This document shows, piece after piece, positions 24,491 to 51,420 of a stretch of DNA of 64,000 bases; position 1 is the first letter of the stretch, and each line of letters begins with the position of its first letter. A model generated the notes under the pieces. The model had not been told where the DNA came from. It saw only the letters and a program-made list of their open reading frames with translations, and ran no database searches. The DNA comes from Candidatus Brockarchaeota archaeon (lineage in GTDB: Archaea; Thermoproteota; EX4484-205; JAAOZP01). A program made the translations under genes and the position numbers. The stretch spans positions 16,542 to 80,541 of the forward strand of contig JAFNIQ010000001.1 of NCBI GenBank assembly GCA_017601395.1. Direction: 5' to 3'.

Positions 24491-24994
24491 CTATCTTCTC
24501 GCTTCTCTGACCATGTGGCCGATTTCAGGAAGTATCAGCCTCCTAATCGCTAATTCCACAGCGTTCTTCGAACCCGGTAGACATATAAGTATCTTTCCCT
24601 TTACAACTCCTGCGAACGCTCTTGTAAGCATCGCAGCCGTACCTATTTCACTGTAGCTGAGGAACCTGAAAAGCTCGCCGAACCCCTCAATCCTCTTCTC
24701 AACTGTTTTAGAGACTGTTTCAACCGTAACGTCCCTCCTGCTCAACCCGGTTCCTCCAATAGTCAGTATAACGTCGATTCCCCCGTTGCTAAGCAGCTCT
24801 TCAATGATCCTCCTTATCTCCCCCTCGTCGTTCGGCACGATAATCCTCTTACACACCTCGTGCCCACTGCTCTTCAAAATATCCTCCGCTATCCTACCGG
24901 ATTCGTCTGTTTCAACCGTTCTGGAGTCGCTTACAGTAACCAGTGCGAAAACGAGGCTTCTGGGAGAAGCCTTCCTATGTTCTAAATAGTCCAA
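24491..24994 (-). CDS. moaB: Molybdenum cofactor biosynthesis protein B (MogA/MoaB family)
   Basis: GGTGLSRRD motif, 167 aa, MogA/MoaB fold signature. Confidence 0.8.
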   Translation of the reverse strand: MDYLEHRKASPRSLVFALVTVSDSRTVETDESGRIAEDILKSSGHEVCKRIIVPNDEGEIRRIIEELLSNGGIDVILTIGGTGLSRRDVTVETVSKTVEKRIEGFGELFRFLSYSEIGTAAMLTRAFAGVVKGKILICLPGSKNAVELAIRRLILPEIGHMVREARR

Positions 24995-25443
24995 TCCTTA
25001 ACCTTCTCCTCGATAACTATGCTTTCTATCGCTGTGAACGGATACTGCCCTTTCTCATCCTTCTCAATCTCCTTAACCATGTCCCAGACCGTTAGTAAAG
25101 CTGCAGCCACCCCGGTTAAAGCCTCCATCTCCACACCGGTCTTAGACTCTGAGACAACCCGACATACTACTGAAACCCTGTCTTCCCCTGTTTGAAACTC
25201 GACAGCTATATGTGTTAGAGGAATAGGGTGGCAGCCGGGTATCAGCTCAGGAGTCTTCTTAACAGCTAGGATTGCTGAAACCTTTGCAACAGTAAGAACA
25301 TCGCCTTTCGCAATCCCACCGGTTTTCAACGCATCCACTGTTTCGCGCCTAAGCCTTATCCATCCTTTCGCAACAGCCATCCTGCGCGAAGGCTCCTTGC
25401 CGCTTATGTCGACCATCTCCAGCCCCTTTTCGTTCCAGTTCAA
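24982..25443 (-). CDS. moaC: Cyclic pyranopterin monophosphate synthase accessory protein MoaC
   Basis: MVDISGKEPSRRMAVAKG N-terminus and …GVEMEALTGVAAALLTVWDM… block. Length 153 aa. Confidence 0.85.
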   Translation of the reverse strand: MNWNEKGLEMVDISGKEPSRRMAVAKGWIRLRRETVDALKTGGIAKGDVLTVAKVSAILAVKKTPELIPGCHPIPLTHIAVEFQTGEDRVSVVCRVVSESKTGVEMEALTGVAAALLTVWDMVKEIEKDEKGQYPFTAIESIVIEEKVKDWTI

Positions 25444-25446
25444 GGT

Positions 25447-25857
25447 TTAAACAGCCTCCTTAACCCATCTTTCCCCTCTGGGTGTAACCTCTTTTTTCCA
25501 TATTGGTGCACGCGCCTTAACCTCGTCTATAATCCAGCTGCAGGCTTTGAAAGCCTCCCTCCGACTTTCGGCTGAGGCGGCCACCAGAACAATGTTTTCA
25601 GCCTGCTTCAGTCTTCCAACCCTGTGAATAATGGCTGCATCAATTATTCTGAATTTTTCTAAAGCGTTTCTCCTTATTTTTTCAAGCTCCGCCTCCGCAG
25701 CCTCCCTGTATGCTTCGACAATCATCTCGCTAACGGTCTCCCCCTCCCTAAACCCCTTCACAACACCTAGGAAAAACACTATCGCGCCGGTTTCCATTCC
25801 CTTCAGTGTTGAAGCAACCTCGTCTATTGAGAAATCATCCTCGGTAACGCGGATCAT
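25447..25857 (-). CDS. moaE: Molybdopterin synthase catalytic subunit MoaE
   Basis: Length 136 aa with the conserved …GAIVFFLGVV…IVEAYREAA… MoaE-like blocks. Adjacent to the MoaD-like gene. Confidence 0.7.
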   Translation of the reverse strand: MIRVTEDDFSIDEVASTLKGMETGAIVFFLGVVKGFREGETVSEMIVEAYREAAEAELEKIRRNALEKFRIIDAAIIHRVGRLKQAENIVLVAASAESRREAFKACSWIIDEVKARAPIWKKEVTPRGERWVKEAV

Positions 25858-26171: not shown

Positions 26172-28643
26172 CTAGTAGTGCGATACTGTTATTCTCTTCC
26201 TGAGCTCTGGTTTTGAGAGCGGCCTATCCAGCTTTACCAGAATCCTTTTCTCAACACGCGGGGGAAGGTCGAAGAAGTTATCGCTGAACTCTGCTTTCAC
26301 CCCTCTAATCCTTACTTCGCATGCTTTTACAACATTGTTCGAAACCAGGGTTAGCTCATAGGTTGCACCGTCCTTTCTGCCAAGCTTCATTCTAATTCTA
26401 GGCTTGGGAAGCGTAATATGCTTCACTTTTTCAAGGAATACCACGTCATACCTTGGCTCAGAGTCTTCAGGCTCGAAAACGCATACTAGAAAATTGCTGA
26501 ACCTGTCTTTCACTCTTAACTCGCTTAGGCTTAGCTCCATACAGGGCTTTGAAGAATTCGCCTGTACAACAACCTCCATCTCTACTCCTGCCTTCCTGTT
26601 CCCCTTCAGGTCGAAAGACATGATCCTAAGCCTGCCCTTCACAGGTTTAAGAAGATCATTGCAAACCCAGGCCTCCACCTTATCCTGCTTAACAAGCAGG
26701 CTAACGTTAACGGGGTCGAATGCCCTCTTCACGTAGTAGTATGAAGCCTTAAGGTTACCGTAATAGTCGATCAGGCTCCAGCTGAGCACTGGCCAACAGT
26801 CGTTGAGCTGCCATATCAAAGCTCCCCCCGTCTTAAACTTCCTCCTCCTCCAGTGTTCTACACCCGTCTTCATAGCTTCCCCTTGGTTTATTTGAGTCAA
26901 GTAGACAAACCTGCTCAGGTTTACAGCCAGCTTGAAATGCAACAGAATGAAAAGCCAGAGTCTCTCCTGCCCAAAATGCTGCTTATTATGGAATTCGATG
27001 ACCCTGCTCTGCGGATCCCTGTCCCCGGGAAGAGTGAACCTTCTAATCGTTTCCATCGAGGGTGCCGACTGGAAGCCGAATTCGCTTATGAACCTACCCT
27101 TATCATTAAGGTACTCCGTGTAATCTCTTAGCATAGACCAAACCTCCCAGTTATGCCTGTCTCCCTCGCTTTGCGAATTAGGATCGTCACCCCCATATGG
27201 GCTACTCGGCCAGTAGAAGGTTGCAGGGTCAAGTTTAGAGCAAACCTCTGGAAGTATCTTGTGATAGATCGTCTCGCCATAGAACCTATCCTTCATGCCG
27301 TACCAATGCGCCTTGAACCCCCAGTGATTCTCGTTGTTACCACACCATATTGCTAGGCAAGCGTGATTCCTGAGCCTCCTCACCACTTTCTCAGCCTCCT
27401 TTCTAACTAATTCGAAGAACCATTCTTCCTCAGGGTACTCTGCGCATGCGAACATGAAGTCCTGCCAGACAAGTATCCCCTTCTCGTCGCAAAGCTCGTA
27501 GAAAGCCTCATCCTCATACACACCGCCGCCCCAGACTCTTACCATGTTCATATGCGCCTCCTTCACCCTGCTTAGAAGATAATCGTAAACCTTCCTGCTG
27601 ACCCTAGTTAGGAAGGAGTCTGCAGGAACCCAGTTTACCCCTTTACAGAAAACTGGAACATTGTTAACTCTGAAGAAGAACGTTTTACCCTCTTCATCCT
27701 TCTCCTGAACCACTTCGATCCTTCTTATTCCAACTTTCTTTTTAACCATGTCTAAAACACCCTTCGAGCCCTCAACAACAATCTCCAAGTCGTAAAGGTT
27801 TTGCTCACCATAACCGTTTGGCCACCATAGTTTCGGATTCTGAATGTTAAACTCGATTTTAACATCGTTTAATCCGGGTGAAACATCCACATGTTCCTCC
27901 CTAACCTGTTCTTCGCCGAAACCCTTCACCCGAGTCATCAGCTTCACACCACCCGTTTCGAAGGCCTCTATAGAGACGCTTACACTTATCTTCGAGCTTT
28001 TAAGGTCGCTGCTAAGTTCGCTGGAAAAATGGAAGCTTTCAATCTTACACACATCGTAAGCTTTAAGCTCCACGCTTCGCCAAATCCCTGAGGTTCCCAG
28101 TCTCGGGCCCCAATCCCAGCCGAAGGAGTATTGCGCCTTCCTACCGTAAGCGACTGGGGGATAGAACGCTCCACCCAGCTTAACGCTGCTCTTGTCATAC
28201 ATTTCCTCAAGAACCCTTTTAGGCGAATCAAGCCTAACTACTAGTGTGTTTTTCCCTTCTTTTAAAAGATCTTTAACATTAAACTCATGCTCGTGAAACA
28301 TGTTGGCTGTCCTGCCGACCTCTTTCCCATTGAGCCAGATTGTTGCAAAAGTATCCAAGCCGTGAAACTTGAGCTCAACATGGTCATGGTTGAGAAAGTC
28401 TTTGCCTACGTGAAACTCTTTCATATACCACCAATCCTTATCCTCCACCCAAGCTACCTCAAGCTCGTTCATTCTGAAGAACGGGTCGGGGATCTTTCTA
28501 TTCCTCAAAAGGTCAAGATGGACAACGCCCGGCACGGTTGCCTTCAACCATGGGCCTGAGCTCGGCGGCGTCTTCTCATCTCTCCCGCATTCTTTGAAAA
28601 ACCATTCCCCGTTAAGACTTATGGTTTCCATGAGTTTCCGCAA
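26172..28643 (-). CDS. Glycoside hydrolase family 2 (beta-mannosidase-like)
   Basis: N-terminal GH2 sugar-binding block (WLNGKEVGRTANMFHEHEFNV). The acid/base region …AIWCGNNE… matches the GH2 WxGxNE motif. Length 823 aa, no signal peptide. Confidence 0.75.
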   Translation of the reverse strand: MRKLMETISLNGEWFFKECGRDEKTPPSSGPWLKATVPGVVHLDLLRNRKIPDPFFRMNELEVAWVEDKDWWYMKEFHVGKDFLNHDHVELKFHGLDTFATIWLNGKEVGRTANMFHEHEFNVKDLLKEGKNTLVVRLDSPKRVLEEMYDKSSVKLGGAFYPPVAYGRKAQYSFGWDWGPRLGTSGIWRSVELKAYDVCKIESFHFSSELSSDLKSSKISVSVSIEAFETGGVKLMTRVKGFGEEQVREEHVDVSPGLNDVKIEFNIQNPKLWWPNGYGEQNLYDLEIVVEGSKGVLDMVKKKVGIRRIEVVQEKDEEGKTFFFRVNNVPVFCKGVNWVPADSFLTRVSRKVYDYLLSRVKEAHMNMVRVWGGGVYEDEAFYELCDEKGILVWQDFMFACAEYPEEEWFFELVRKEAEKVVRRLRNHACLAIWCGNNENHWGFKAHWYGMKDRFYGETIYHKILPEVCSKLDPATFYWPSSPYGGDDPNSQSEGDRHNWEVWSMLRDYTEYLNDKGRFISEFGFQSAPSMETIRRFTLPGDRDPQSRVIEFHNKQHFGQERLWLFILLHFKLAVNLSRFVYLTQINQGEAMKTGVEHWRRRKFKTGGALIWQLNDCWPVLSWSLIDYYGNLKASYYYVKRAFDPVNVSLLVKQDKVEAWVCNDLLKPVKGRLRIMSFDLKGNRKAGVEMEVVVQANSSKPCMELSLSELRVKDRFSNFLVCVFEPEDSEPRYDVVFLEKVKHITLPKPRIRMKLGRKDGATYELTLVSNNVVKACEVRIRGVKAEFSDNFFDLPPRVEKRILVKLDRPLSKPELRKRITVSHY

Positions 28644-35120: not shown

Positions 35121-38100
35121 ATGATAGTGGTTCGACGAAAGCATTTGCTTGTTATTGTGTTTTTAATGATGCTTGTTGCCCCTCTCATAGTAATACAGGG
35201 GAATCGGGAGGCCGTTGAAGAAAAAACTTGGTTAAACCAGGAAGCCCCATTGGTTTCAGCAGACAGGATAAGGGACTATGTAGCGTTGTTTTCGTCAATA
35301 CAGTCAAGGTTCACAGGCTATCCTGGGTCCCTAGAAGCAGCCCAAATCATAATGGACAAGTTTAACGAATCTGGGCTGAAAGTTAGCCTTTTCGAATACA
35401 CGGTGCTGGTTCCGTATGACTCAGGCTCATACATGAAAGTGGGCGGCAGAATGATTAAGGCCTATGGGCTCTACCCTAATGTCGTAGCCACGGGTTTGAA
35501 AAAGGCTTCCGGAAGGCTTGTCTACGCTGGTCACGGTACTCCGGAGGAGCTTAGGGGACTTAACGTGAATGGTAACATAGTCCTCCTCGAGTTTAACTCA
35601 GGGTCTGCATGGGTAGACATGGTTAAGCTTGGTGCATCTGGAATCGTTTTCCTGGAGGACGGTGACACGAATCGCTTTGAAGCATTGAGAAAAATCTCTT
35701 CTGTCCCACTGGATACTCCAAGAATATATGTAGTGGGCCAGGAAGCGTCTCAGCTCAGAGAAATCGCTAGAAATAATCCGGATGCAGAGCTTTTTAACGG
35801 TATGGAGTGGAGAGAAGTTGAGGCTGTTAACGTGATTGGGGAAATGAAGGGTGTCGAAGACCCGTCTAAAGTAATCATTATAACGGTGAACTATGACTCC
35901 GGGTCGATTGTCCCAGGGATCGCTCCGGGGGCTGATGAAGCCATAGGTATTTCTGTCATGCTCGAATTCATCAGATCTTTGAAACAGCAGGGCCTCTCGC
36001 CGAGATACACAGTGCTTTTTATAGCGATGTCTGGACATTGGCAGGCCCTAGCCGGTGCTAGAAGCTTCGTGGAACAATTCTACTTTAACAATTCCGCTAT
36101 AGGCAGGGAAGTCTTCCCGTATCTCGTCATAGACATTAAGATTAGCTCAGGAAGCCCGCACTTAAACCTTGTTTACAGCGGCATGATGTACTCCATTAAT
36201 ACTCAGTATATTGCAAGCAGGTTCAGAGACCTCCGAATATTTTTTGCAAATTCAATTAAATCTTTCATTAACTCTTTCCCAAGCTATGGCAAAAAGGTTT
36301 TGACCAGCAACCTATACCCCGGCCTCTACGGCATCGCGTATGACTCGGCCAGTCCCGGTTTTCAGAAGGGCCTTGCCTTCAAGCATATTCTCGAAATGGA
36401 GCCTTTTGAGCTGGCTAACAGCATTGGGCTCGGAATAATTACTTTCGACGACTTCAGGTATCGCGTTTTCACCCCGTCTGACAGGCTGGATTTCATCGAT
36501 TTCCAGAACGTCATACCTCAAGCACAGCTAACATTCCAGATCCTGTTCGACCTGTTGAATGCTCCGGTTGAAGAATGGTATCCAGGCAGTTGGGAGGGTT
36601 TAAGACCGTTGAGAATGGGTGAAACCTACACTGGAGTTGGTTTCACTGTGTTAAAGGTTGAAGTAGTTGAATACGACCCTACTACGCCAGGCCTATACAG
36701 CCCGGTTTCAAACGCTTTCGTCACGGTGGGGAGCACGTTGGACCAATTCACGCTGATGTTTTCCAAATCGGATTCCTCAGGCTTCGCAGTGTTCAGGGGT
36801 TTAAGGCCATATCCTGAGGCGACGACTGCGTTGCAAACCCCTATTCAGAGTTACGTGATCGACGAGGAGGGGAGAATAATCTATGCTCCAGACAGGGGAC
36901 AGCATGGTGCCGGAACATATCCTTCAAGCGTAACGATAGTCTCACCTGAACAATTCACGAGGAACGTTGTGTTTAAATGCGGGAGCGCCGTCATGTTCGA
37001 TTTAACCGACCCGGACACTCTGCAGGCTGCAGTCTCTCCAAGCTCGATGTTTGGAACCACGAATGCTTATTCGGCGCAACTCAGGAATTACGGTGGCTAC
37101 GAGACCCCGCTAACGATAAGCGTGATGGTGATGCAGATACCTGGATACTCTATTCTAGACTCGTTCGGCTACGAGTTCGACCCCATTCTGTCGGTTGCAC
37201 AGGTTTACGCCCCGCCCCGCATCAGGTTCGGCTTCGTTGTTAAAAGCACGTCTATGGCTAAAACGGTTGCAGTCTATACGAATGTGACTCTGCAGAACCA
37301 GGATGGGTACGGGTATTATTTGGGTAAAGAGGGGGACAGGCTGCTCGTAAAGGGTGGAATACCCGGCATGTTCATGGAGATGTTGACATTAGCATATGGC
37401 AGGTATTTGGCTCAAGCAGACATTCAAGTCCTGGACCCAAAGACGATGGAGAATTTGAATTATGCGATAATGTTTAACCAGACGCTTCTTCAGACGGCTT
37501 CGAAAAAGGATTACAGCGGGTTCTTGACGAGCGCTTTAATGGCTTGGGGGTTCTCCAGCAAGGCTTACCAAAGCTCTTTGAGCGTTGTCCGCGACGCGGT
37601 TACGAGCATAATTCTCGTATTCGCTTTAGCAATACCCTTCATCCTTCTGTTTTCCTCCCTTGTTTACAATTTGAGCAGCGGCTTCAGAAGCGTCGCCCTT
37701 ACTCTTGCTGTGGCGCTGTCCGTGGCGTTGCTTTTAACAGTATTCCACCCGGGTTTTGGGTTAGCGGTAAACGTGCCTGCAATATTCATAGGGACACTGA
37801 TAGTTGCCCTGGTTATTCCAGTGATGTTCTTCCTGTTCTCCAACTTCTCCACAGGGCTTTCCAGGTTGAGGAGAGAAGTTCTTGGTGCACACTTCCTTGA
37901 GAGAAGCGGATTCGACGTTTCGTTTTCAGCCGTATCCATAGGAATAGGCAACTTGAAGAAGCGTAAGTTTAGAACAGTATTAACGATGCTGTGCATAGTA
38001 ATCATAAGTTTCTCGCTTTCGTCTCTGACTTCCGTGACGGAGATAAGGGCTTTAAGAGTTACCCCGACGCCCACCGAGGTTACTTGCAACGGAGTGCTGC

Positions 38101-39638
38101 TGAGAACAGCTAACTTCGCCCCGTTAAACAGGAAGTTGATCGACCTAGTGTCAACCTACATATCTGGCAAGACACTTTATGCTCCGAGGTACTGGGTTTA
38201 TCTTCCTTCCACTCCTGGAGAGGGGACTGCTGGCACAATAGTGATATCCTCTGAGAAAAGCAAGGCTTTGATCTACGCGGCTGTCGGAATAAGCCCTGTA
38301 GAGTTGAAAGCATCTTTCAAGCAGTTTGAAAAAATACTTTTAGAAGGATCCATGTTTAAAGAAGAAGAGGTTTTCTCAGCATTATTGCCGAACAGTCTTG
38401 CGGAAAGCCTGGAGGTGAAGACAGGCGAATATGTCTGGGTTAACGGCTTCCGCTTAACAGTAGCAGGCATACTTAACACGACTGCAATTCTAGCATATGT
38501 GAAGGATTCAGATGGTTTCGTGGACGTCCTGCCCATGGACACGTATATTCTTTCGAACGAGAGAACTCCTCCCCGTGCTGAGGCAGCGTTGAGCCCAGGA
38601 TCCGTAATATTCGTGCCCGCCGGCCTGGTTGAACTGATTCCGGAGGCATGCTTGACAAGCGTTTTCATACCGGCAGACGGGATGGTTTTCGAGGAACTTT
38701 ACGAGAAATGCGGCGAGGTTTTCTCAGCTTTCGAAGGTTTAAACATTTATCTGACGTATAACGGCACTGTATACCGGTTCTCCAAGGAGAACGTTATCTC
38801 GCTATTCGGCTTCCAGTTCATTCTAATACCCATGGTGATCGCGGGGCTGATAACTATGTCGACGATTCTAGGCGGAGTCATGGAGAGAATACGGGAGGGC
38901 TACATATATAGCAGTCTAGGCCTAGCACCGGTTCAAGTAGGCTTAATGTTCTTCGGGGAGAACATCATATACGCTATCGTAGGCTCGATGACGGGCTATC
39001 TCGGCGGAATCTCAGCCTCATACTTGACGAGGAAAATAGGCTTGATAAACCTCCCTGTGAACTACACGTCGTCATTCGTCATGATAGCTGTCGGTCTGGT
39101 GATAGTGCTGGTTCTGGCAGCGTCGCTCTACCCGTTCTACAGAGTCTCCGTCACAGTAACCCCGTCTCTAGAGAGGAAGTGGCGTCTCCAGACTAAGCCG
39201 AAGGGAGACTCGTGGGACATACCGATACCTTTCCGTATAAAGGAGGATGATAGGGCTGCAGGAATGGCTGTTTTCCTCCATGAGTATCTCTGGAACAAGA
39301 GGATAGAGAGGGCAGGAGTCTTCTCCATTGAAAACGTTGAGGTCAGCAAGATAGAGTCTGGAATTAGTGTTAAGTCAAGAGTATGGCTGGCGCCATTCGA
39401 GCAGAACATAAAGCAGGATATGAACATAGTGATATTGAAGAGCAAGACGGAGCAGAATTTCCTTATTTTAATGAATCTAACCAGGGTGTCCGGACCCTAC
39501 GACTCATGGGTCAGGTTCAACTATCCCTTTATTGATGAGATAAGGAAGCAGATGCTGATATGGAACGTTCTCAATCCAGAGGAGCGGGAGAAATACATAC
39601 GTATGGCTAGGGATCGTAGCCTGGTAGGTGAGAAATAA
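35121..39638 (+). CDS. Giant membrane protein (1505 aa): signal/anchor, M28-peptidase-like (possibly non-catalytic) ectodomain, large beta-rich middle region, and an FtsX-like permease module (TM plus extracytoplasmic domain plus 3 TM)
   Basis: M28-like blocks (NVIGEMKGVEDPSKVIIITVNYDSGS…GADEAIGISVMLEF). An FtsX-type N-terminal TM (LKKRKFRTVLTMLCIVIISFSLS). FtsX C-terminal helices (…VIAGLITMSTILGGVMERIREGYIYSSLGLAPVQVGLMFFGENIIYAIVG…). Confidence 0.7.
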   Translation: MIVVRRKHLLVIVFLMMLVAPLIVIQGNREAVEEKTWLNQEAPLVSADRIRDYVALFSSIQSRFTGYPGSLEAAQIIMDKFNESGLKVSLFEYTVLVPYDSGSYMKVGGRMIKAYGLYPNVVATGLKKASGRLVYAGHGTPEELRGLNVNGNIVLLEFNSGSAWVDMVKLGASGIVFLEDGDTNRFEALRKISSVPLDTPRIYVVGQEASQLREIARNNPDAELFNGMEWREVEAVNVIGEMKGVEDPSKVIIITVNYDSGSIVPGIAPGADEAIGISVMLEFIRSLKQQGLSPRYTVLFIAMSGHWQALAGARSFVEQFYFNNSAIGREVFPYLVIDIKISSGSPHLNLVYSGMMYSINTQYIASRFRDLRIFFANSIKSFINSFPSYGKKVLTSNLYPGLYGIAYDSASPGFQKGLAFKHILEMEPFELANSIGLGIITFDDFRYRVFTPSDRLDFIDFQNVIPQAQLTFQILFDLLNAPVEEWYPGSWEGLRPLRMGETYTGVGFTVLKVEVVEYDPTTPGLYSPVSNAFVTVGSTLDQFTLMFSKSDSSGFAVFRGLRPYPEATTALQTPIQSYVIDEEGRIIYAPDRGQHGAGTYPSSVTIVSPEQFTRNVVFKCGSAVMFDLTDPDTLQAAVSPSSMFGTTNAYSAQLRNYGGYETPLTISVMVMQIPGYSILDSFGYEFDPILSVAQVYAPPRIRFGFVVKSTSMAKTVAVYTNVTLQNQDGYGYYLGKEGDRLLVKGGIPGMFMEMLTLAYGRYLAQADIQVLDPKTMENLNYAIMFNQTLLQTASKKDYSGFLTSALMAWGFSSKAYQSSLSVVRDAVTSIILVFALAIPFILLFSSLVYNLSSGFRSVALTLAVALSVALLLTVFHPGFGLAVNVPAIFIGTLIVALVIPVMFFLFSNFSTGLSRLRREVLGAHFLERSGFDVSFSAVSIGIGNLKKRKFRTVLTMLCIVIISFSLSSLTSVTEIRALRVTPTPTEVTCNGVLLRTANFAPLNRKLIDLVSTYISGKTLYAPRYWVYLPSTPGEGTAGTIVISSEKSKALIYAAVGISPVELKASFKQFEKILLEGSMFKEEEVFSALLPNSLAESLEVKTGEYVWVNGFRLTVAGILNTTAILAYVKDSDGFVDVLPMDTYILSNERTPPRAEAALSPGSVIFVPAGLVELIPEACLTSVFIPADGMVFEELYEKCGEVFSAFEGLNIYLTYNGTVYRFSKENVISLFGFQFILIPMVIAGLITMSTILGGVMERIREGYIYSSLGLAPVQVGLMFFGENIIYAIVGSMTGYLGGISASYLTRKIGLINLPVNYTSSFVMIAVGLVIVLVLAASLYPFYRVSVTVTPSLERKWRLQTKPKGDSWDIPIPFRIKEDDRAAGMAVFLHEYLWNKRIERAGVFSIENVEVSKIESGISVKSRVWLAPFEQNIKQDMNIVILKSKTEQNFLILMNLTRVSGPYDSWVRFNYPFIDEIRKQMLIWNVLNPEEREKYIRMARDRSLVGEK

Positions 39639-41557
39639 TGGAAGAGGCTGCACGTGAAAAAGAAGCCTTCATCCCCGGGCTGACAATCGTATCGGTCTCC
39701 GCAGTATTGTTCGGGCTTGTGGTAATCGTGCCCGCAATAATCTATTTAGGCTGGGCTGTCGGCTCTTTAGGTGGAACCGAGAGGTTCATCCCGGTTTTCG
39801 TCACAATCCTCCTATTCACCGAGGCGGGGAGGCTCGTTAAGAGGTATATAACATCGCAAGAGGCTTACATAATATACTTCATGCTTCAAGCCATAGCCCT
39901 ATGGTTCGTCGGCGGAGGAATGTTCGGCGACTTCCTTATAAGGTATTACTACAGGTCCGCCCCTTACACTATCCTATATGGTATAGCTGAAAAGCTTCCC
40001 ACATGGTATGTCCCTGAGCTCGGGAGCTACGGCCCACTCCACAGGACTTTCCTCTCCCCAGACTGGGTGATTCCAATATCGATTTCTCTAGCTGTTAACG
40101 TTTGCGTGCTGATGATAGATTACGGTGTTTCTTTCATAACAAACATGCTCTACATAGAGATAGAGAAGCTCCCGTTCCCCGTCGCACCCATAGACTACCA
40201 GGCGATTTCAACCCTTACTGAGAGAACACCTGAGAAAATAATGTACTTCTCTTTCGCCGCTGTGATAAGCTTCATCTACGAGTTCGCCATCTACGGGATT
40301 CCAAACATAACCTCGATTTTCCTAGGCAGGGCTATAACCGTCATACCGTATCCCTGGGTGGACTTAACCACGGGGATTGAAAGAATCCTGCCGGGAGCAG
40401 TTTTTGCAGTCGGAACCGATATTGCTCAATACATGGTGGGCTGGCTTATCCCGTTTAACGCCGCGGTATGGATGTTCATCGGGTCGGTGGCAGTCTGGGT
40501 TTTCGGAAACTCTATAGCGCTCAGGATTGACCATCCCTACTTCAGCATGTGGCAGAGAGAATGGACTTACGGCGCGTCAATCCAATGGTGGTGGCAGAGA
40601 GCAATCTACGACCTGTGGGCAAGTCCACAAGTAGGTTTAACACTCGGGATCGCGCTTGGAATACTTGCTGTAGGAGCCAAAAACATTGCGCGAGCAATCC
40701 TCTCCCTCAGACATCTTTCGGCAGAGCAGCTTAAAACATCATACTTGCCTTTCAGCTGGATAGTTGCTTTAATCGCCGCCGGGTCTATAGGCGGGTTGCT
40801 TGTTTCAGTCTCCCTTGCCCCAGAACTATGGTTCGTCTGGGTGGTGACCTGGACGATAGTTCCGTTTATTCAAGGTATTCTGACAGCCAGGGCTACTGCT
40901 GAAACCGGGTTATCTGTCACCATACCCTACATTAGGGAAGCGTTCTTCGTTTCTTTCACAAGGCCTGGAGACGTGGTCCCGTGGGTGGTTCCGACGCATG
41001 TGACAAGCAGCGCCGGGATAATTACGCACAGGGTCTACGTGGCTAAGCTCCTGAAAGTCAGGCCCCTAGACTACTACAAGGCCTACCTCATATTCTTCAT
41101 AGTGGCTATTCTCCTATCCCTGCTGTACGTTTCAATATTCTGGGCGATGACGCCCATACCTTCTGCCTTCTACCCGTACGCCAGCTACTCCTGGCCTATT
41201 TCAGCCCTCTACTTCTCCCTATGGGTCTCTAGGTCGATCGAGATTTTCAAGGTGGACGTGATAGCTATCTCAAGCGTCTTATCCTTCATAATGGTCGTCG
41301 TCTCCTCCCGTTTCCCAACGCAATACTTCTCCCCAATAGGCTTCCTATACGGTTTTCAAAACATTCCCGCTTACACGCTTCCACCATTGATCGGAGCCCT
41401 GATCGGAAAATGGCTTGAGAGGAGAATGGGTAAGGATAAATGGGTTGTGCGGAGAGGAGTGATAATCGCCGGAACATTCTGCGGGATCGCGCTTGCAGTA
41501 GCAGCCGCTGTCGCCATCACTATAATGGGGAGAGCGATAACAGCTAAACCATTCTAA
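39638..41557 (+). CDS. Hypothetical giant polytopic membrane protein (639 aa), paralogue B. The start overlaps the upstream stop (TAATG).
   Basis: About 14 TM helices. It shares an E-K-L-P-F-P-V-A-P-I motif and overall architecture with the protein at 32859..34964. Confidence 0.6.
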   Translation: MEEAAREKEAFIPGLTIVSVSAVLFGLVVIVPAIIYLGWAVGSLGGTERFIPVFVTILLFTEAGRLVKRYITSQEAYIIYFMLQAIALWFVGGGMFGDFLIRYYYRSAPYTILYGIAEKLPTWYVPELGSYGPLHRTFLSPDWVIPISISLAVNVCVLMIDYGVSFITNMLYIEIEKLPFPVAPIDYQAISTLTERTPEKIMYFSFAAVISFIYEFAIYGIPNITSIFLGRAITVIPYPWVDLTTGIERILPGAVFAVGTDIAQYMVGWLIPFNAAVWMFIGSVAVWVFGNSIALRIDHPYFSMWQREWTYGASIQWWWQRAIYDLWASPQVGLTLGIALGILAVGAKNIARAILSLRHLSAEQLKTSYLPFSWIVALIAAGSIGGLLVSVSLAPELWFVWVVTWTIVPFIQGILTARATAETGLSVTIPYIREAFFVSFTRPGDVVPWVVPTHVTSSAGIITHRVYVAKLLKVRPLDYYKAYLIFFIVAILLSLLYVSIFWAMTPIPSAFYPYASYSWPISALYFSLWVSRSIEIFKVDVIAISSVLSFIMVVVSSRFPTQYFSPIGFLYGFQNIPAYTLPPLIGALIGKWLERRMGKDKWVVRRGVIIAGTFCGIALAVAAAVAITIMGRAITAKPF

Positions 41558-41571
41558 GTTAGCCTCTGTGC

Positions 41572-42660
41572 TTATTTCCTTTTTAGCGCGCCTATCTCGG
41601 AAGTATAGAGAATTAGTCGGTCTACCTCCGTGCTCCATCCAAGCTCCCTGGTGTGGTTCGGATCCACCGCCTCAACCCATATTAGCCACCTGTCGCCCCT
41701 TATCCTGTCGAATAAGGCTTGAGCATAAGTGTGAATCGGGTACTCGCCGTGTTCGAAACGTGAAAGCGGTGTCCAAACTTTTTCGAAAATGGTTTCTAAA
41801 TTAAGCCTTCCTAAATCAATACTGTAGGCGACAAAATGTTTGGTAAGCGCGTTCCCCCTTATCACATCCAGCGTTTTCGTGCCGATGAAAATCAGACCCG
41901 TTGAGCCTGGGATTATTGAGCCGCTCAGCAGGAAGAAGTCCGGTTGACTCTTACCGTCAACAGTAGGCACTCCAAGCTTAACCCAGTTCTTCCCATCGCT
42001 ACCGACAGCCAACGCCGTCTTCACGATGCTTGTGCCCGCCCTCCTAGCCTTGTAGAGGCAGAAGTATCTGCCATCAACTATGTCTATAGTAGCGTCTCTC
42101 GATTCTCCGCTGTCGTATTCCTCGCTTCCTCTGATTACGAAGCCTTCAGGCTCCCATGGGCCGGAAGGATCTTCCGAAGTCAGTAGAAAGGTTTCCCACC
42201 TGCTCTCCGTGAAAGCCTCTCCCTCGACAACCAAGTTCTCCCTTGAAACATTCAGCGAAAGATAAAGATGGTATCTCCCACTCAAGGGGTCTTTTAAAAG
42301 CTGCTGGTTCTCAATGCTTAGAATCTGGTTTTTCGTCATCTCGCTCAACTCCTCCTTAGTGATCCATGTTACCAGATCATAATTCTCACCATCCTTCGAC
42401 CTGTATATTTCAACAGCGTACCCCCTCCTCATCTCCTTCATCTCTCTCGGCCTACTCGTCAACCAGTATTCACTATTCTCCTCATCGATCCACATTTTTC
42501 CAGCGCCGCACCAAGAGCCGGGGTTGAAATTGGGAGGGTCGAGGAGCACCTTCATAAACCTTCTTTTGGAGAAGATGGCTTGAGGTGGGTATAGGCCACA
42601 CCAGCTCATAACAACGTTGAGAAAAGAAATGTTATTTAAGGCTTTCGCCATTGTTTTCAC
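41572..42660 (-). CDS. Hypothetical protein, possibly a beta-propeller glycosidase-like fold (GH43/GH32/GH130-type?). The start may be the internal Met (MKVLLDPP…).
   Basis: ORF of 362 aa with no TM. Repeated beta-strand-rich segments. It sits among glycoside hydrolase genes. No firm family motif was recognised. Confidence 0.35.
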   Translation of the reverse strand: MKTMAKALNNISFLNVVMSWCGLYPPQAIFSKRRFMKVLLDPPNFNPGSWCGAGKMWIDEENSEYWLTSRPREMKEMRRGYAVEIYRSKDGENYDLVTWITKEELSEMTKNQILSIENQQLLKDPLSGRYHLYLSLNVSRENLVVEGEAFTESRWETFLLTSEDPSGPWEPEGFVIRGSEEYDSGESRDATIDIVDGRYFCLYKARRAGTSIVKTALAVGSDGKNWVKLGVPTVDGKSQPDFFLLSGSIIPGSTGLIFIGTKTLDVIRGNALTKHFVAYSIDLGRLNLETIFEKVWTPLSRFEHGEYPIHTYAQALFDRIRGDRWLIWVEAVDPNHTRELGWSTEVDRLILYTSEIGALKRK

Positions 42661-42695
42661 TTTCTATATTGCGGATCGTAGTCTTTTCCACTCAT

Positions 42696-43810
42696 CTATG
42701 AAAGCCTGAGCATTCTACCTGGCCACTGCTCGCGGATAGAGGGCACTGCGTGAAGAATGAAGCCTCTTCGGCCGAAAACTTGGAAAGCATTCTGAACTGC
42801 TTTACGCACAGTCTCTGGCTTCCCCTGGCCTATGTGGACGGGCGCGCTAACACCTCCCCCAGATACGCTTTCTACCGCCAAGCTTCTGAGCCAGGATCTT
42901 CATGTCTTGGTTTCCAAGAGCCGGCTCGATGCCGTCATAAGCGTCGAAGGGGAGTTCAGCCAAATAGTCTAATATGGGCATCACGCCTGTGCAAACCGTG
43001 TAGCTGCAAACCCTGTCGGCGGAATGTACCTGCTCAGCCTCCTCTCGCAACCTTTCCCCCTGAAAGGTTTGTAGCTGCCTAGGCTCCAGAAATCCGTGGT
43101 CTCGTAGAAGCCGTTGCGGCGCACAATATCCACGCCATTTTCGAGAGCTAACTCCAATTGGTGCGTTGTTGTCTCATGCTCAATTTCCAAGAATCATTCT
43201 ATTACCTTGGGGTGTTTAATTGAAAGGTAGATACTCCTTGTGCCAAAAAGCAGGAAAGCCGCTGTTAGCTCCATGTCGATTGTAGCCATAGTGGCTGACC
43301 CTAACTGTTCGACCAAGGCTCTAGCCTTCACCATTTTTTCCTGAAAGGCTGCAACCTCCCGCCTTCTTGGGGGCATGTGCACATAAGCCCAGCGCTCAAC
43401 GTCCTCCATGTTTTCAAGCCAAGGCTTAACGAAGATGGAGACGTTGAAGTCTGAGAGTAGCGGTATTTCCATGCCATGTGGCCAATCAGGGGTTCTCCTA
43501 ACAGCGGCGGTAAGAGGCCCGGCGGGAGTCATGATCTCCTTGTGAAGAATGGGATAGAGCTCACGCAGGTTCTCCCAAACCCTAAAAGATACTTCAGGAC
43601 GCTGGCCCGCTGGAACACCCAAGGGTATAACAGGGTCGATGCCCCGCTCCTCCACTTGGAACCGGAGTGCTTGCTCACCATATGGGTCTTGCCGTTGCCA
43701 GTCCCTATACCTACCAGGCTCAACCTGGGACTCATGAAAAAAGTTGAGAGCGGCACGTAGTCCACATCCCCTCGACGCATAGCTACTATTACGCGTTCAC
43801 GAGGGTTCAT
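42696..43810 (-). pseudogene. Disrupted uroporphyrinogen-decarboxylase-family (MtaA/CmuA-like) gene, split over at least 4 reading frames
   Basis: Minus-strand fragments 43529..43810 (MNPRERVIVAMRRGDVDYVPL…), 43194..43655, 42981..43190, 42847..43050 and 42696..42881 align colinearly with successive segments of the intact paralogue at 47364..48461. One example is …CTGVMPILDYLAELPFDAYDGIEPALGNQDMKILAQKLGG… against TDGNVNLLIPKLIEAGFTALQPMEVKAGMDVVELKEKYG. Confidence 0.55.
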
Positions 43811-43920
43811 CCATTTCTACCTAATTTACATCCAGCGACTTGCTTACATATATGTTTTTGAATTATGTTTTAATCAACCTTTAACGGATATTCAAAAGTG
43901 GCATCGTATTAAACTCAGAT

Positions 43921-45051
43921 TTAGAATATGTCTTCCGCGTAGGCTACACCTGCCGCATGTATGCCCCATTCTCGATATTTTAAGCATGTGGCTGAGTAAT
44001 AAGCCGTATAGATGGTTCCGTCATCAAGCTGGACACTACTTGGGTATCCGCAGTCAGCGTCTGTCGCATAAGAGACTAAGGCGGCTCTCCTGTTAAACAT
44101 CCATGATCGGCCGCCGTCGAGGCTTATCACTGCATGAACCCCGTAAGGCACCCTCCGGTGTCCAAAGGTTAGCAAAACCTTCCCGCTCTTAAGGTAACAA
44201 AGGTCCCCGGGGTGTTCACCGCCAACAGTCACCTGTTTAGGCTCAGACCATGTGTAACCCATGTCTCGAGAGCGACTGATGGCAACGCATTCGCCGCCAC
44301 CCTGAGCATGAGGTCCGCGGAGGGCTGCCAACAAGTCTCCATCGGGTAATTGTAGAAGAGCAGTTTCATTATATCCTTTAGCGACGATGGTTAAATCCTT
44401 CCATGTGAAACCATTGTCTTCGGAGCGTAGAATATAGCTGGTCTCTATCGAGCCTTCTACAGTATATTCTTGAGAGTAAACAGACATAAGAATAGTTCCA
44501 TCATCTGTCTGAAGCATTCTCCCATAGGGTGAAACCGCCCCTTTAAACGGAAACTCCAGCGGCTCGGGCTTACTCCACTCCCTACCACCGTTGGTCGACC
44601 TCGTTACGAACATTTGCCACCTCATCCCATTCCTCTTCCACAACCCATTCTCATAACCCCAGACTCTTACAAAGGCAACCAGCAGAGTACCGTCCTTCAA
44701 TTGACATAAGGCCGGATTCCTATCATCAGTCTGAGAAACGGTTACAATTCTTGGCATTGTCCATGTCTTACCCCCGTCTTTAGATAACGAGAGCTCTAAG
44801 CGGCCTCGTTGACCAACATGGTAATCCCCCATGCGGAAGACAACTGCTAGGTTTCCGTCACGGAGTTTAGTCAAAACCGGGAAATATCCACCCATAGGAG
44901 TTATAAGATATCTTCTCACCCGCTTGAGGGAACCAACCATCGCCTCATCGCAAAACTGCATTCCATACTTGAACTCCTCATCGGCTTTCATGTTTTTCCA
45001 CGGCCAACCGTTTTTCCGTATGCGGGCGTTCTTATTAATTTTGATGTTCAT
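43921..45051 (-). CDS. BNR/Asp-box repeat beta-propeller protein (sialidase/exo-alpha-sialidase-like glycosidase fold)
   Basis: Five Asp-box motifs (SKDGGKTW, STNGGREW, SEDNGFTW, SRDMGYTW, SLDGGRSW) spaced about 60 aa apart. Confidence 0.7.
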   Translation of the reverse strand: MNIKINKNARIRKNGWPWKNMKADEEFKYGMQFCDEAMVGSLKRVRRYLITPMGGYFPVLTKLRDGNLAVVFRMGDYHVGQRGRLELSLSKDGGKTWTMPRIVTVSQTDDRNPALCQLKDGTLLVAFVRVWGYENGLWKRNGMRWQMFVTRSTNGGREWSKPEPLEFPFKGAVSPYGRMLQTDDGTILMSVYSQEYTVEGSIETSYILRSEDNGFTWKDLTIVAKGYNETALLQLPDGDLLAALRGPHAQGGGECVAISRSRDMGYTWSEPKQVTVGGEHPGDLCYLKSGKVLLTFGHRRVPYGVHAVISLDGGRSWMFNRRAALVSYATDADCGYPSSVQLDDGTIYTAYYSATCLKYREWGIHAAGVAYAEDIF

Positions 45052-45188
45052 GTTTGCGGTATAAGTATCACCATTGCCCTTCGTATCCGCGTGCTAGCTG
45101 TGTAGGTGAGCTTTTCCTCACTATAGTCGCAGAACGTTAGCGCAAGAAACTAGGAATTTTAAGGTTTTTTTCACACGCATCAAACGTT

Positions 45189-46037
45189 TTATTCTGCCCT
45201 AACCAATAACGCTATGGTTTGAGGCCCGATTTGGAGTGCTAATGCCTTTAGTTTTTCTCTACAGTAAAACGGAGAATAAATTATCGTCACGTTTCCCTGC
45301 TTTAAAACATACTGTGCGAATTCTCCACCATCCCGGGTCCAAGGCAGAATAGGGATTATCTCAAACGATCCATCCTCATACTCCACTTTAACCCCGGCGG
45401 AGAACATCTCAACCTCAGATACGGATGTATTGCCGTAAAAACATTCATGGAGGCGGAGTATTGTTGACGCAAGGTAGGTGAAGACTACTCCTCTGAAGAC
45501 TATTTTCGTACCGTTCTCCAGCTCGCTCGCCGTTACCAGCAGGTATCTGAACCTTAAGCCTCCCACTGTGACAAAACCTTCTGAAAGATCCAGGTTTTCG
45601 TAGAGCGGTATTTGCCTTGACGCAACCCGATGAATCTCAGGGATCGTCACCGCTGATAGCAGGACAACGATTACAACTAAACTTAGAATATTAAGCATCC
45701 TACTCTTTCTTACACTCATCTGTTCAACGAGCTGTGTAAACCGTAAAGCCTCCCTCCCATCGTCACTTATCACATACTTTCCATAGGCGTCCTGTTTCAC
45801 AAGGTCTCTCAGCCTCTCTAAGTGGTACTGAAGATGGCCACTGCTCTCCATCCCCAGAGCCCTTTTAAGCTCCGAAAAGCCCATGGGTTCCTGCTGAAGA
45901 ACCTTCAATATCCTTATCCTCACAGGATGCGCGAGAACGTCGAAGAGCCCAGCCCTTCTTATAGAATCATCCCTCTCCATTGATTCCGAATGTTTCACAT
46001 ATGATTTAAGGCTTTTCAAGTCTAAAATTCTGGACAA
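45189..46037 (-). CDS. ArsR-family HTH transcriptional regulator fused to a TM helix and a C-terminal extracytoplasmic domain
   Basis: The N-terminal VLAHPVRIRILKVLQQEPMGFSELKRALG is a winged-HTH ArsR signature. It is followed by a hydrophobic helix (ILSLVVIVVLLSAVTI) and a domain of about 150 aa. Confidence 0.55.
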   Translation of the reverse strand: MSRILDLKSLKSYVKHSESMERDDSIRRAGLFDVLAHPVRIRILKVLQQEPMGFSELKRALGMESSGHLQYHLERLRDLVKQDAYGKYVISDDGREALRFTQLVEQMSVRKSRMLNILSLVVIVVLLSAVTIPEIHRVASRQIPLYENLDLSEGFVTVGGLRFRYLLVTASELENGTKIVFRGVVFTYLASTILRLHECFYGNTSVSEVEMFSAGVKVEYEDGSFEIIPILPWTRDGGEFAQYVLKQGNVTIIYSPFYCREKLKALALQIGPQTIALLVRAE

Positions 46038-46105
46038 GCAGGAATATAGATACCTGATTAGGTCTAGAAGAGAGGCATTATATATGCACTTCCAAATACT
46101 CCTTA

Positions 46106-46834
46106 ATGGAAGGAAGTGAGAAGATGAGAACAGTAAAAGTGCTGTCTAGGAGAAGTTCTACTATCTTAAGTTTTGCTCTAATTTCCTTTCTCGCGGCAAT
46201 AGTGCTGTTACAGGGTAAGGTGAGGAGTCAAGCGGCCGGTCCAGAAAAATTAATCCCGATCAATATTCAAGCAATAAAGCTCGAGAATCCTACAAACGAT
46301 CCGTACAAATGGCCCCCTCCATTCCTAAGGGAAATCATGTTGGATGACGGAAGAGTATTGAAAGTTAACCTCTGGGGCTTCATCCTCAGGGCTACAGGGC
46401 AACTTTTTAAAGAGGAGGGGTATTTCTGGATTGCATCTTGGAAGTTCATGTATATTGCCGGACCCCCTAAAGGTTCAAGCTCCGCGAAAGCCACCTTTCA
46501 TTTCAAATTCTTGACCTTTGAGAGGCCGGAGCCATCTTCAATAGGCGAACCAACCGGAGGAGTGCTTTCTACTCGAGAAGCTCGCATACATGGCGGTTTC
46601 TATGAACCGGCGGGTGTACCGATATGGGTAACAATCACGTGGGAACCAGCGGATAAGCCAATAATAGTATCTGCCTACTGCGCCGAAACCAGAAGAGGGC
46701 AAGGCTATCAAATCACTGGAGGTAGCTGGACCGGAAACCTGACGGTACTCGACTCGGGAATCAACTATGTTGTAGTGGGGAACCCAAATGACGATGTCAC
46801 TATAACGTATTCAGGCGAGTTAATCTGGCCATGA
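46106..46834 (+). CDS. Hypothetical secreted protein with an N-terminal signal/anchor
   Basis: Hydrophobic N-terminal segment (ILSFALISFLAAIVLL). No recognisable motif. It is divergent from the ArsR-like gene. Confidence 0.45.
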   Translation: MEGSEKMRTVKVLSRRSSTILSFALISFLAAIVLLQGKVRSQAAGPEKLIPINIQAIKLENPTNDPYKWPPPFLREIMLDDGRVLKVNLWGFILRATGQLFKEEGYFWIASWKFMYIAGPPKGSSSAKATFHFKFLTFERPEPSSIGEPTGGVLSTREARIHGGFYEPAGVPIWVTITWEPADKPIIVSAYCAETRRGQGYQITGGSWTGNLTVLDSGINYVVVGNPNDDVTITYSGELIWP

Positions 46835-47363
46835 TCCAACTCTATACTCAATCTCCTCTCTCTTATTTTTCCGCTTCACTGTTTTAAACACGACATTCTC
46901 TTAATAAATTTGAGACCATGTTTATGGAATAAGTATCAGCGTCATCCCTTATATTCTGTCAGGCGATATGCGCTAAATAGTGATGCAGCGCACCTATACG
47001 ATTGCTGCCCCTTCTTGAGAGAAAATGTTCATGATGTTTCCTATGACCTTTGGCGTCAATCTGCATAGACAGTTATTGCCGCGAAGAGTAAGGGGCCTCT
47101 TACTAAAACCAAAAATAGGAATAGGGCAGAAATATTTCACTTTCTTTCCAATTTCAGAAGGAAACTGGATGCAATTTTGAAATCAAGAATGAGTTAAACG
47201 CTTCCCTACTGGATTTTAGATTTAGCTGATGAAGTTACAGGTCTCATAAAACTTCTAGAGAGGCTTAAATACATGAGGCTTGAATGATGCTGGGCAAACA
47301 AATTCAAATATTAGAAAATGGCAGATGAAATAAAAATGAGGGCATGAGGTTTAGGAAGGGTCT

Positions 47364-48461
47364 TTATGTATATGCTCCGTATTTTCTGATCAGCTTTATG
47401 TATTCTTGAAATGCGCTGAAAGAAACATCAGGCGGCACACTGTGGTCTGAACATGCTATGTATCCCCCGCCCTTTTTTGCGGCGGGTATCTTGCGGGATA
47501 TTTCAACCTCAATCTCCATGGGGTTGCCAATCTTCCTCGCATCGAGGTTTCCGATGAAGGAAAGGGTCTTCCCATATTTCTCTTTCAGCTCGACAACGTC
47601 CATTCCCGCCTTAACTTCCATCGGCTGTAAGGCCGTGAAACCAGCTTCGATCAATTTGGGGATCAACAGGTTCACGTTGCCGTCAGTATGCAATATGGTC
47701 GGCATATTCCTCACCCTATAGGCAGAGGTCATTTGAGCATGCGCCGGCTTCACGAACTCGTCGTAAACCTTCGGGGAGAAGAACGGCCCCTTGTTGTAAC
47801 CTATATCATCCCAAACCCACAGTCCGTCAACTCCTAGCTTAAGATAGGTTTCCACGATCCTTGAGAAATACTGGCCCAAATGTCTGAAAATATACTTAAC
47901 GAGGCCCGGATCCCTGTGGATCGCGACCAACACCTTGTCCACGCTTTCCCCAAGTATATGTCTAGTTGCTTCAAAAGGACCTATTATCGAGCAGAATACG
48001 GCGTAACGCTCCTTCAACCTCCTTATGCCTTCCTCAAGCTCCCTCTTAAACGGGTATTTGCTGCTTGAAACCCTGATTGGCAGCTCAGGGTCTAATAGGG
48101 GCTCAAGCTTCTCTTTAAAATCCTCAATCGTCGAGACCGATGGTGGTCCAGCAGGATGAGGCGTACCGCTCCTACCGATCCAAGCCTTCACCCTCACGCC
48201 CCAGGAATCTATGTATGTTCTAAACTTATCATTCTCCTCGAGTATGATGGTGTCGTACTTAGGACTTACATCCGGACCTATTAGGTAGATATCGTAGCCA
48301 AAATAATCATGTAAGGAGACTCCTCTAGGCAGGCCCTCGCTATACCATCTCTCAAGGGTTTCGCCCCATGGGAAATCTATGAAGGGAACCCTGTCTGCCT
48401 CCTCGTGGTTTAACACTCTTAACACCCGTTCTCTCGAATCCATGTTTTTCAAAAATCCCAC
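47364..48461 (-). CDS. Uroporphyrinogen decarboxylase family protein (URO-D / MtaA-CmuA-like methyltransferase fold), intact
   Basis: N-terminal SRERVLRVLNHEEADRVP motif, TIM-barrel-length 365 aa, C-terminal …GGGYIACSDHSVPPDV… block. Confidence 0.7.
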   Translation of the reverse strand: MGFLKNMDSRERVLRVLNHEEADRVPFIDFPWGETLERWYSEGLPRGVSLHDYFGYDIYLIGPDVSPKYDTIILEENDKFRTYIDSWGVRVKAWIGRSGTPHPAGPPSVSTIEDFKEKLEPLLDPELPIRVSSSKYPFKRELEEGIRRLKERYAVFCSIIGPFEATRHILGESVDKVLVAIHRDPGLVKYIFRHLGQYFSRIVETYLKLGVDGLWVWDDIGYNKGPFFSPKVYDEFVKPAHAQMTSAYRVRNMPTILHTDGNVNLLIPKLIEAGFTALQPMEVKAGMDVVELKEKYGKTLSFIGNLDARKIGNPMEIEVEISRKIPAAKKGGGYIACSDHSVPPDVSFSAFQEYIKLIRKYGAYT

Positions 48462-50049: not shown

Positions 50050-51420
50050 GTGATCATGGTTAAGATAACTGTTATTGGAGCAGGAAGCCTAGCTTGGTCG
50101 GCGACGCTGGTTCGCGACTTATGTTTGACTCCGAGCCTGAGAGGTTCAACAGTAGTGTTCATGGATATAAACAAGGAAAGGCTGAGCCTGATTGACGCTT
50201 TCGCTAAGAGGTATGCTTCCGAGGTTAAAGCCAACCTGGTTTTTGAGAAAACAACCGACAGGAGGGCTGCGTTAAAGGATTCAGACGTGGTGATAAACAC
50301 AGCCATGGCTGGGGGCCACTCTTACTATGAAAACATGAGAATGATTTCAGAGAAGCATGGCTACTATAGGGGGATAAACAGTGTTGAGTGGAACATGGTT
50401 TCAGACTACCATACTATATGGGGATACTACCAGTTTAAACTTGCCTTGGATATCGCGAGGGATATTGAGGAATTAAGCCCAGAAGCATGGCTTCTCCAGC
50501 TCGCCAACCCTGTTTTCGAGCTAACCACTCTAATAAGCAGGGAGACTAAGACAAGGATCATAGGTCTTTGCCACGGCCACCTGGGTTATCTAGAGATATC
50601 CAGTATCCTAGGGCTTAACCCTAGGAATATTGATTTCGAGGCCATAGGTTTTAACCACGTCATCTGGCTAACCAGGTTTAAACATGATGGGGAAGACGCT
50701 TACCGTTTCATAGACGACTGGATTAGAAACAAGGCTGAAGAATACTGGAGGATTTGGCGCGAGGATCAAGTAAACCCGTTCGACATACAGATGTCTCCAG
50801 CAGCCGTCGACATGTACAGGACCTACGGGCTTTTCCCGGTAGGGGACACTGTTAGAGGTGGAACGTGGAAGTATCATTGGAACCTTGAGACTAAGAGAAA
50901 ATGGTACGGCTCTCTAGCGGGCCCGGATTCTGAAACCGGTTGGAAAGTATACTTAGATATGCTTCAGTACAACTTTGACACGATAGCTGCGGCGATAAAG
51001 GATCCGGCGCCTTTGACAAGAGTGCTTCCCCCAAATCTTAGCCGGGAATCAGTTGTCCCAATAATAGACTCTTTGATGAACGATAAGGTGGGAACCTACC
51101 AGGTTAACGTTTTAAACATGGGTGTGATAGCTGATTTGCCTGATGACGTTGCCGTCGAGATTCCGGCTAAGGTTGACGGGAGAGGCGTGCACAGGATGAG
51201 GGTTGAAAAACTGCCTAGGCGAATAGTAAACTATGTTCTCCGGCCAAGAATGATGAGAATGGAGTGGGCTCTTGAAGCTTTCTTAGATGGTGGTCGTGAC
51301 ACTCTTTTCGAATGGCTGGTGACAGACACTAGGACAAAGTCTACAGAGCAGGTTAACCAGGTCATAGACGACATTCTTTCAATGCCGGAGAACCTGGAGA
51401 TGGCGAAACATTTCAAGTGA
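50050..51420 (+). CDS. Glycoside hydrolase family 4 (NAD+/Mn2+-dependent alpha-glucosidase/galactosidase or 6-phospho-glycosidase)
   Basis: N-terminal Rossmann KITVIGAGSLAWS, a GLCHG catalytic Cys-His motif, and a length of 456 aa. Confidence 0.8.
   Translation: MIMVKITVIGAGSLAWSATLVRDLCLTPSLRGSTVVFMDINKERLSLIDAFAKRYASEVKANLVFEKTTDRRAALKDSDVVINTAMAGGHSYYENMRMISEKHGYYRGINSVEWNMVSDYHTIWGYYQFKLALDIARDIEELSPEAWLLQLANPVFELTTLISRETKTRIIGLCHGHLGYLEISSILGLNPRNIDFEAIGFNHVIWLTRFKHDGEDAYRFIDDWIRNKAEEYWRIWREDQVNPFDIQMSPAAVDMYRTYGLFPVGDTVRGGTWKYHWNLETKRKWYGSLAGPDSETGWKVYLDMLQYNFDTIAAAIKDPAPLTRVLPPNLSRESVVPIIDSLMNDKVGTYQVNVLNMGVIADLPDDVAVEIPAKVDGRGVHRMRVEKLPRRIVNYVLRPRMMRMEWALEAFLDGGRDTLFEWLVTDTRTKSTEQVNQVIDDILSMPENLEMAKHFK

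Follow-up and report, generated by a model that had tools for sequence, protein, structure and literature searches.

The closest described relatives of the gene discussed here belong to the PF01208 superfamily, which includes HemE and the methylcobamide:CoM methyltransferases MtaA and MtbA, and with which it shares a single-domain length of ~350-390 aa. For the Brockarchaeota, MtaA was not found and an "undescribed" second methyltransferase was therefore postulated (De Anda et al., 2021; PMC8065059). In this article, I will describe a member of this superfamily, here called URO-D2, that no longer exists as a gene in 64,000 nucleotides of a Candidatus Brockarchaeota archaeon (GenBank assembly GCA_017601395.1, contig JAFNIQ010000001.1, positions 16,542 to 80,541; the whole of this stretch is referred to as the window). 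I put the probability at about 0.9 that URO-D2 is a unitary pseudogene, the remains of a long-resident URO-D-superfamily gene on which selection was relaxed and which sister lineages have lost in different ways.

Five open reading frame fragments lie on the minus strand in alternating frames at 43529..43810, 43194..43655, 42981..43190, 42847..43050 and 42696..42881 (93, 153, 69, 67 and 61 aa, the 153-aa one being the longest ORF to survive), exactly where a sequence-only reading of the same DNA had placed them, between 42696 and 43810. The whole pseudogene occupies 42664..43810 on the minus strand, from an ATG at 43810..43808 to an ancestral-frame TAG at 42666..42664 that is reached by a sixth short piece, so its 3' end lies ~30 bp past the earlier limit of 42696. 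Once the four single-base indels and the two nonsense codons are repaired (by three-frame translation and DNA alignments), URO-D2 reads as a protein of 381 aa that scores 28.7 bits against Pfam PF01208 (URO-D; cut-off 23.9, E 8.6e-7) over residues 195-373, a match spanning three frame changes, and none of the five fragments taken singly has a Pfam match at E<=1. The repaired protein finds 366 homologues, the best of which are intact proteins of 370-389 aa with 62-80% identity, 97-100% query coverage and E-values down to 4e-196, and most of the intact orthologues P0001-P0007 carry PF01208. Since the joined protein passes the URO-D threshold and matches intact homologues end to end, the fragments are parts of one former gene, and its homology to the URO-D family is far beyond chance; the suggestion of a multiply frameshifted URO-D/MtaA-family pseudogene is thus borne out by both the profile match and the intact orthologues. 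In the protein alignment nearly all family-invariant residues are retained, and the near-invariant positions that have changed are L60R, R132I and a GxGLT motif that now reads DMELT.

The reading frame is broken at six places: a single base has been lost at three of them and gained at one, and substitutions have made stop codons at the other two. The earlier count of "at least three or four" frameshifts or stops thus becomes four frameshifts and two in-frame stops. All six were positioned to the base in DNA alignments against the related loci L001, L022/L002, L023 and L024, and all are given here on the minus strand, in the order in which the gene would have been read. The first is a 1-bp deletion at 43734..43735 (alignment A1, column 97) that shifts the frame after codon 25; the window reads CA-TGA where relatives have CAGCGA or CAGTGA, the site is beside a T6 run and outside it, and the lesion is missing in L023, L001, L022 and the very close L029. 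The second, at 43194..43196 (A1, columns 636-638), is a nonsense TGA made by substitution where orthologues encode Ser (AGC) or Arg, in the context ...VIE[S/R]FLEIEH... of protein alignment A2. A further 1-bp deletion falls in a short C run at 43083..43084 (A1, column 749; A3, column 868), the window having GGAG-CCTAGG and relatives GGAGCCCTAGG or GGAGCCCCAGG, and it is missing in L023, L024, L001 and L022. The insertion lies in a G run at 42856..42860 (A1, column 973), G5 in the window and G4 in relatives, at a site where L023 carries a 1-bp deletion instead and L024, L001 and L022 are undamaged. The last deletion, at 42719..42720 (A1, column 1114; A3, column 1234), is outside any homopolymer (CCA-GGTAG in the window, CCATGGGAG in relatives) and is again missing in L023, L024, L001 and L022, and the sixth lesion is a nonsense TAG in the repaired frame at 42715..42717, seen in both the DNA and the protein alignments, where all relatives have GAG, the Glu of a conserved WPWEN motif. 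The TGA lesion falls inside a deletion in L023 and opposite unalignable sequence in L024, and among the lesions that are comparable none is common to the window and any relative.

Could such a gene still be expressed, through ribosomal frameshifting combined with stop read-through or through a TGA read as an amino acid? Programmed frameshifting does occur in archaea, and one of the stops in URO-D2 is indeed a TGA; however, expression by this route would need six separate events, five of the six lesions are comparable in the close relative L023 and missing from it, and L029 is without the first. TGA also terminates 14 of the 50 long ORFs in the window and is therefore an ordinary, unrecoded stop here, and an Rfam scan of the whole window returned no recoding element and no other RNA family. 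I consider recoding so improbable as to deserve next to no weight, and URO-D2, as a pseudogene, is presumably unexpressed.

A second URO-D-family gene, which I call UROD1, lies intact 4 kb away on the same strand (47364..48461, minus strand; Pfam URO-D 1.9e-20), and the sequence-only reading had taken it for the intact paralogue of a recently duplicated gene now in decay. As listed, UROD1 begins at a GTG at 48461 and encodes 365 aa; its orthologues are 359 aa long and start from the Met of MDSRERV, and going by this comparison translation of UROD1 probably begins at the ATG at 48443, which would make its product the same length. These orthologues are 84-91% identical and labelled Candidatus Brockarchaeota, and UROD1 has a dN/dS of 0.09 against L023. 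UROD1 and URO-D2 do share the superfamily fold, a similar length, strand and locus, and this is what makes a recent duplicate, decaying through redundancy, worth weighing; but the similarity between them is not of the BLAST kind. When the 365-aa protein was searched against the window by tblastn there was no match in 42600-43900 even at E<10, and BLASTP of the repaired URO-D2 against UROD1 aligned no more than 24 N-terminal residues (E 0.044), whereas hhalign aligned the two colinearly over 322 columns with 87% probability, an E-value of 3.6e-6 and 21% identity. The colinearity with the 365-aa protein that had been described is therefore real at the profile level and absent from tblastn and BLASTP, and the blank tblastn means that the basis originally given for it is not reproducible at BLAST sensitivity, where orthologues and profiles are required. 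The two also differ in motif, UROD1 reading LHTDGN where the URO-D2 family reads YTVCTG.

Furthermore, each of the two genes has its own syntenic orthologues in related genomes, diverged relatives included, and their nearest kin are found in different domains of life. UROD1 has its relatives among TACK archaea (Brockarchaeota, Thermofilaceae, Thermoprotei and Bathyarchaeota), while the intact relatives of URO-D2 come from bacterial MAGs labelled Anaerolineae/Chloroflexota, Planctomycetota, Armatimonadetes, Limnochordia, Latescibacterota and Omnitrophota, the closest of them on short contigs and all of these names being MAG binning labels. With ~21% identity, separate syntenic orthologues and relatives in different domains, URO-D2 is a unitary pseudogene and no fresh duplicate, so neither the paralogue nor the recent duplication stands. 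In addition, UROD1 is itself the decayed member of the pair in the clade that L001 and L022 form, and the ancestor of URO-D2 was long kept as a distinct functional gene, as the substitution rates given next indicate; a recent duplicate is very improbable indeed. The bacterial company of its homologues suggests that the URO-D2 gene was acquired from bacteria.

The history of selection on the pseudogene can be read from how it has diverged. Compared with its closest relative, L023, URO-D2 is 93.7% identical, against 97.8-98.7% for the flanking genes and 95.5% for the GH43-like gene downstream, and its dN/dS in the same comparison is 0.50, against 0.01-0.13 for four neighbours (an MFS gene has 0.64, on 15 changes). 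With L001 as outgroup, dN/dS comes to ~0.41 on the branch of the window and to ~0.49 on that of L023, both on small counts (24 and 16 substitutions), and these branch substitutions are spread over all codon positions with no concentration in the third. Over the longer term, dN/dS against L001 is 0.12-0.14 at a dS of ~0.73-0.76, like that of functional neighbours, and low long-term together with raised recent-branch values implies that URO-D2 was a working gene during the greater part of its history and escaped selection only recently. The timing of inactivation is only roughly bounded, because the recent values, at ~0.4-0.5, fall short of 1 and come from few substitutions. URO-D2 once encoded a ~380-aa URO-D/MtaA-superfamily enzyme in a carbohydrate-utilisation neighbourhood and was under purifying selection through most of the history of the group until that selection relaxed, after which the lineage of the window gained its six lesions, leaving no full-length product possible. 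Selection presumably relaxed when the function became dispensable across the group.

The related loci tell a similar story, each with its own kind of damage. In L023, URO-D2 has its own -1 and -2 frameshifts, a ~168-bp deletion, another -1 and a CAG-to-TAG change; in L024, all that is left is a ~545-bp remnant spread over three frames; a lone 2-bp deletion marks L022 and L002-L005, which represent four separate assemblies; and in L027 the gene is wholly deleted, with 111 bp between the flanking genes. L001 keeps an uninterrupted copy whose last ~12 codons have been replaced through a deletion, and L026 (P0008) ends early, after residue ~277, on a contig of 1974 bp that is too short for synteny or lesion assignment. 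In the species-representative genome set, archaeal URO-D2 loci are broken in 3/3 cases and the loci in bacterial MAGs are intact in 15/15. That the same gene has been lost by different lesions in sisters points to group-wide dispensability rather than a single accident, and the independent loss of URO-D2 in every related lineage sampled is largely shown. Several separate assemblies also break at or beside the gene, with L028 ending at window position 43909, L029 near 43715, and L004 and L005 at the 3' end of URO-D2; these breaks may reflect co-existing population variants of a decaying region. GCA_017601325.1 has 96.6% DNA identity to window 51430-43909.

It is against this background that a more mundane explanation has to be judged, namely that the organism carries an undamaged gene and that the frameshifts are homopolymer or consensus errors of sequencing or assembly. 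The window is a metagenome assembly, after all, and two of the four indels do fall within short homopolymers (C3/C4 and G4/G5). The other two indels are outside such runs, however, and both nonsense codons arose by base substitution, which removes most of the concern about homopolymer errors. Four indels and two nonsense substitutions fall within the 1.15 kb of URO-D2, while 50 non-overlapping ORFs of >=100 aa (median 334 aa) make up 90% of the window. A search of the window for other broken genes, as a control on assembly quality, found none, the three short ORFs at 24491-25857 proving to be normal genes for MoaB, MoaC and MoaE, so with the long ORFs intact and these short ones explained the breakage is confined to URO-D2 alone. 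The Logan contig L006 (SRR13673846) is identical base for base over 7131 bp that include URO-D2, although L006 may derive from the window's own reads, in which case a systematic read error at the two indels in homopolymers would be repeated in it; the lesions are presumably present in the reads. Raised non-synonymous divergence and the replacement of conserved residues (R132 to I, G-x-G-L-T to D-M-E-L-T) go beyond what indel errors could generate, and orthologues are damaged in at least five other assemblies, differently each time. An artefact is accordingly very unlikely, and genuine loss of URO-D2 remains the reading on which the rest of this article builds.

The neighbourhood of the pseudogene has itself been subject to turnover. 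Between 41572 and 51420 the window has the order GH4-MFS-UROD1-(ArsR-like, 242-aa)-BNR-URO-D2-GH43-like. Directly upstream of URO-D2 is an intact BNR/sialidase-like beta-propeller gene (43921..45051, minus strand; Pfam BNR_2 2.1e-26) whose position is kept across all related loci, and directly downstream is an intact 362-aa GH43-like gene (41572..42660, minus strand; Glyco_hydro_43 at E 0.0011, below the cut-off). Between the BNR gene and UROD1, Pfam recognizes an ArsR-type gene with HTH_20 and DUF7347 domains (45189..46037, minus strand) and finds no family for a 242-aa gene (46106..46834, plus strand), which agrees with the intervening genes as first described, a BNR-sialidase-like protein, a membrane ArsR-like regulator and a secreted protein. 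By blastn and tblastn, the ArsR-type and 242-aa genes do not survive whole in L001, L022 or L027: the 2.3-kb segment that holds them (45049-47370) is missing in L001 and L022 and leaves short remnants in L027. Because of those remnants the segment looks like an ancestral part of the locus that other lineages have deleted, not like an insertion in the window. UROD1 and the GH43-like gene show the opposite of the URO-D2 pattern: the window, L023 and L024 have both of them whole, whereas in the sister clade UROD1 has ten gaps and the GH43-like gene eight in L022, and both are deleted or truncated in L001. The stretch from GH4 to the GH43-like gene is a hotspot of lineage-specific gene decay.

Two side observations concern the surroundings of this hotspot. 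Glycoside hydrolases abound in the window, with GH106-like, GH2 beta-mannosidase-like and GH4 genes at 7639-10638, 26172-28643 and 50050-51420, and this richness fits the carbohydrate-degrading lifestyle proposed for Brockarchaeota. Adjoining the locus, at 35121-41557, are genes for a Peptidase_M28+FtsX protein of 1505 aa and for a membrane protein of 639 aa that matches no Pfam family, the latter being unusually constrained at 97-99.8% amino acid identity among relatives and a dN/dS of 0.01-0.03.

What, then, did the enzyme do before it was lost? The profile of the URO-D2 family matches the MtaA structure 4ay7 over its C-terminal half (E 6.5e-12), and nothing marks URO-D2 as HemE. In the HMMER alignment to 4ay7, MtaA reads LHICG and APGCG where the URO-D2 family has near-invariant YTVCTG and SAVPS, so that the HxC...C motif of MtaA, whose residues I take to be zinc-binding, is represented by T-x-C and P/S, two of its three positions differing (His to Thr, and the Cys gone). 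UROD1, for its part, reads LHTDGN and IACSDHS at the positions of the HxC and C motifs of MtaA. No gene for a corrinoid/B12-binding protein was found among the immediate neighbours of URO-D2 orthologues at six loci, L025 included, where the neighbours are Amidohydro_2, an ABC solute-binding protein, an SSF symporter, ZnuA/ABC-3, radical SAM and zinc alcohol dehydrogenase genes, and in the window URO-D2 is surrounded by the BNR, GH43-like, MFS and GH4 genes, with no MtaA-type (mtaBC-like) context. Given the differing zinc-motif positions and the lack of a neighbouring corrinoid gene, it is unlikely, as far as motifs and gene context can tell, that URO-D2 was a canonical MtaA. My best guess is that the family comprises cofactor-independent, URO-D-like TIM-barrel enzymes whose substrate would be a small carboxylated or methylated catabolite.

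One association among the orthologues deserves mention on its own. Directly upstream of the closest intact orthologues is an Amidohydro_2 gene (L025 6922-9164, L008 1369-3610, L010 4628-7140), which forms an operon with them, overlapping the URO-D2 orthologue by 4 bp in L025, and the three Amidohydro_2 proteins are mutually 61-70% identical. No homologue of it was found in the window (tblastn E<=1) or in the other 13 orthologue loci (tblastn E<=1e-5). The association is confined to one subclade, and it gives no ground for explaining why selection on URO-D2 relaxed.

The boldest version of the argument would have URO-D2 acquired from bacteria, selected for a long time and then discarded in parallel, with either URO-D2 or UROD1 being the "undescribed" methyltransferase of De Anda et al. 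This is a long shot, and the link to the postulated enzyme is speculation that is weakened further by the missing zinc-binding residues and by the lack of corrinoid genes nearby. If it were true, the parallel decay would mark a loss of methylotrophy in this subgroup. Whatever the activity was, there are consequences for annotation: 43810..42664 should be entered as one pseudogene and not as five hypothetical ORFs, and URO-D/MtaA-family genes in Brockarchaeota MAGs should be checked for intactness before they are counted as functional, a check that matters as the methylotrophy proposed for the phylum hinges on which methyltransferase genes are present. The seven related loci also form a natural series of gene death, with stages that run from a 3'-truncated copy through copies with a single frameshift, with six lesions and with lesions joined by a 168-bp deletion to a 545-bp remnant and lastly a clean deletion, and such a series could help to gauge the dynamics of indels and deletions in an archaeal lineage that is uncultured.

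Set beside the unitary pseudogenes already described from prokaryotes, URO-D2 looks familiar. Those genes, too, accumulate small indels and nonsense substitutions, show a raised dN/dS and diverge faster than their neighbours, and they proceed by progressive deletion to complete loss, as has happened in the relatives of URO-D2. This is ordinary pseudogenisation, and nothing about it differs in kind from known prokaryotic gene death; what sets it apart from the usual unitary pseudogene is how many times this one gene has been inactivated independently in a narrow group of archaea.
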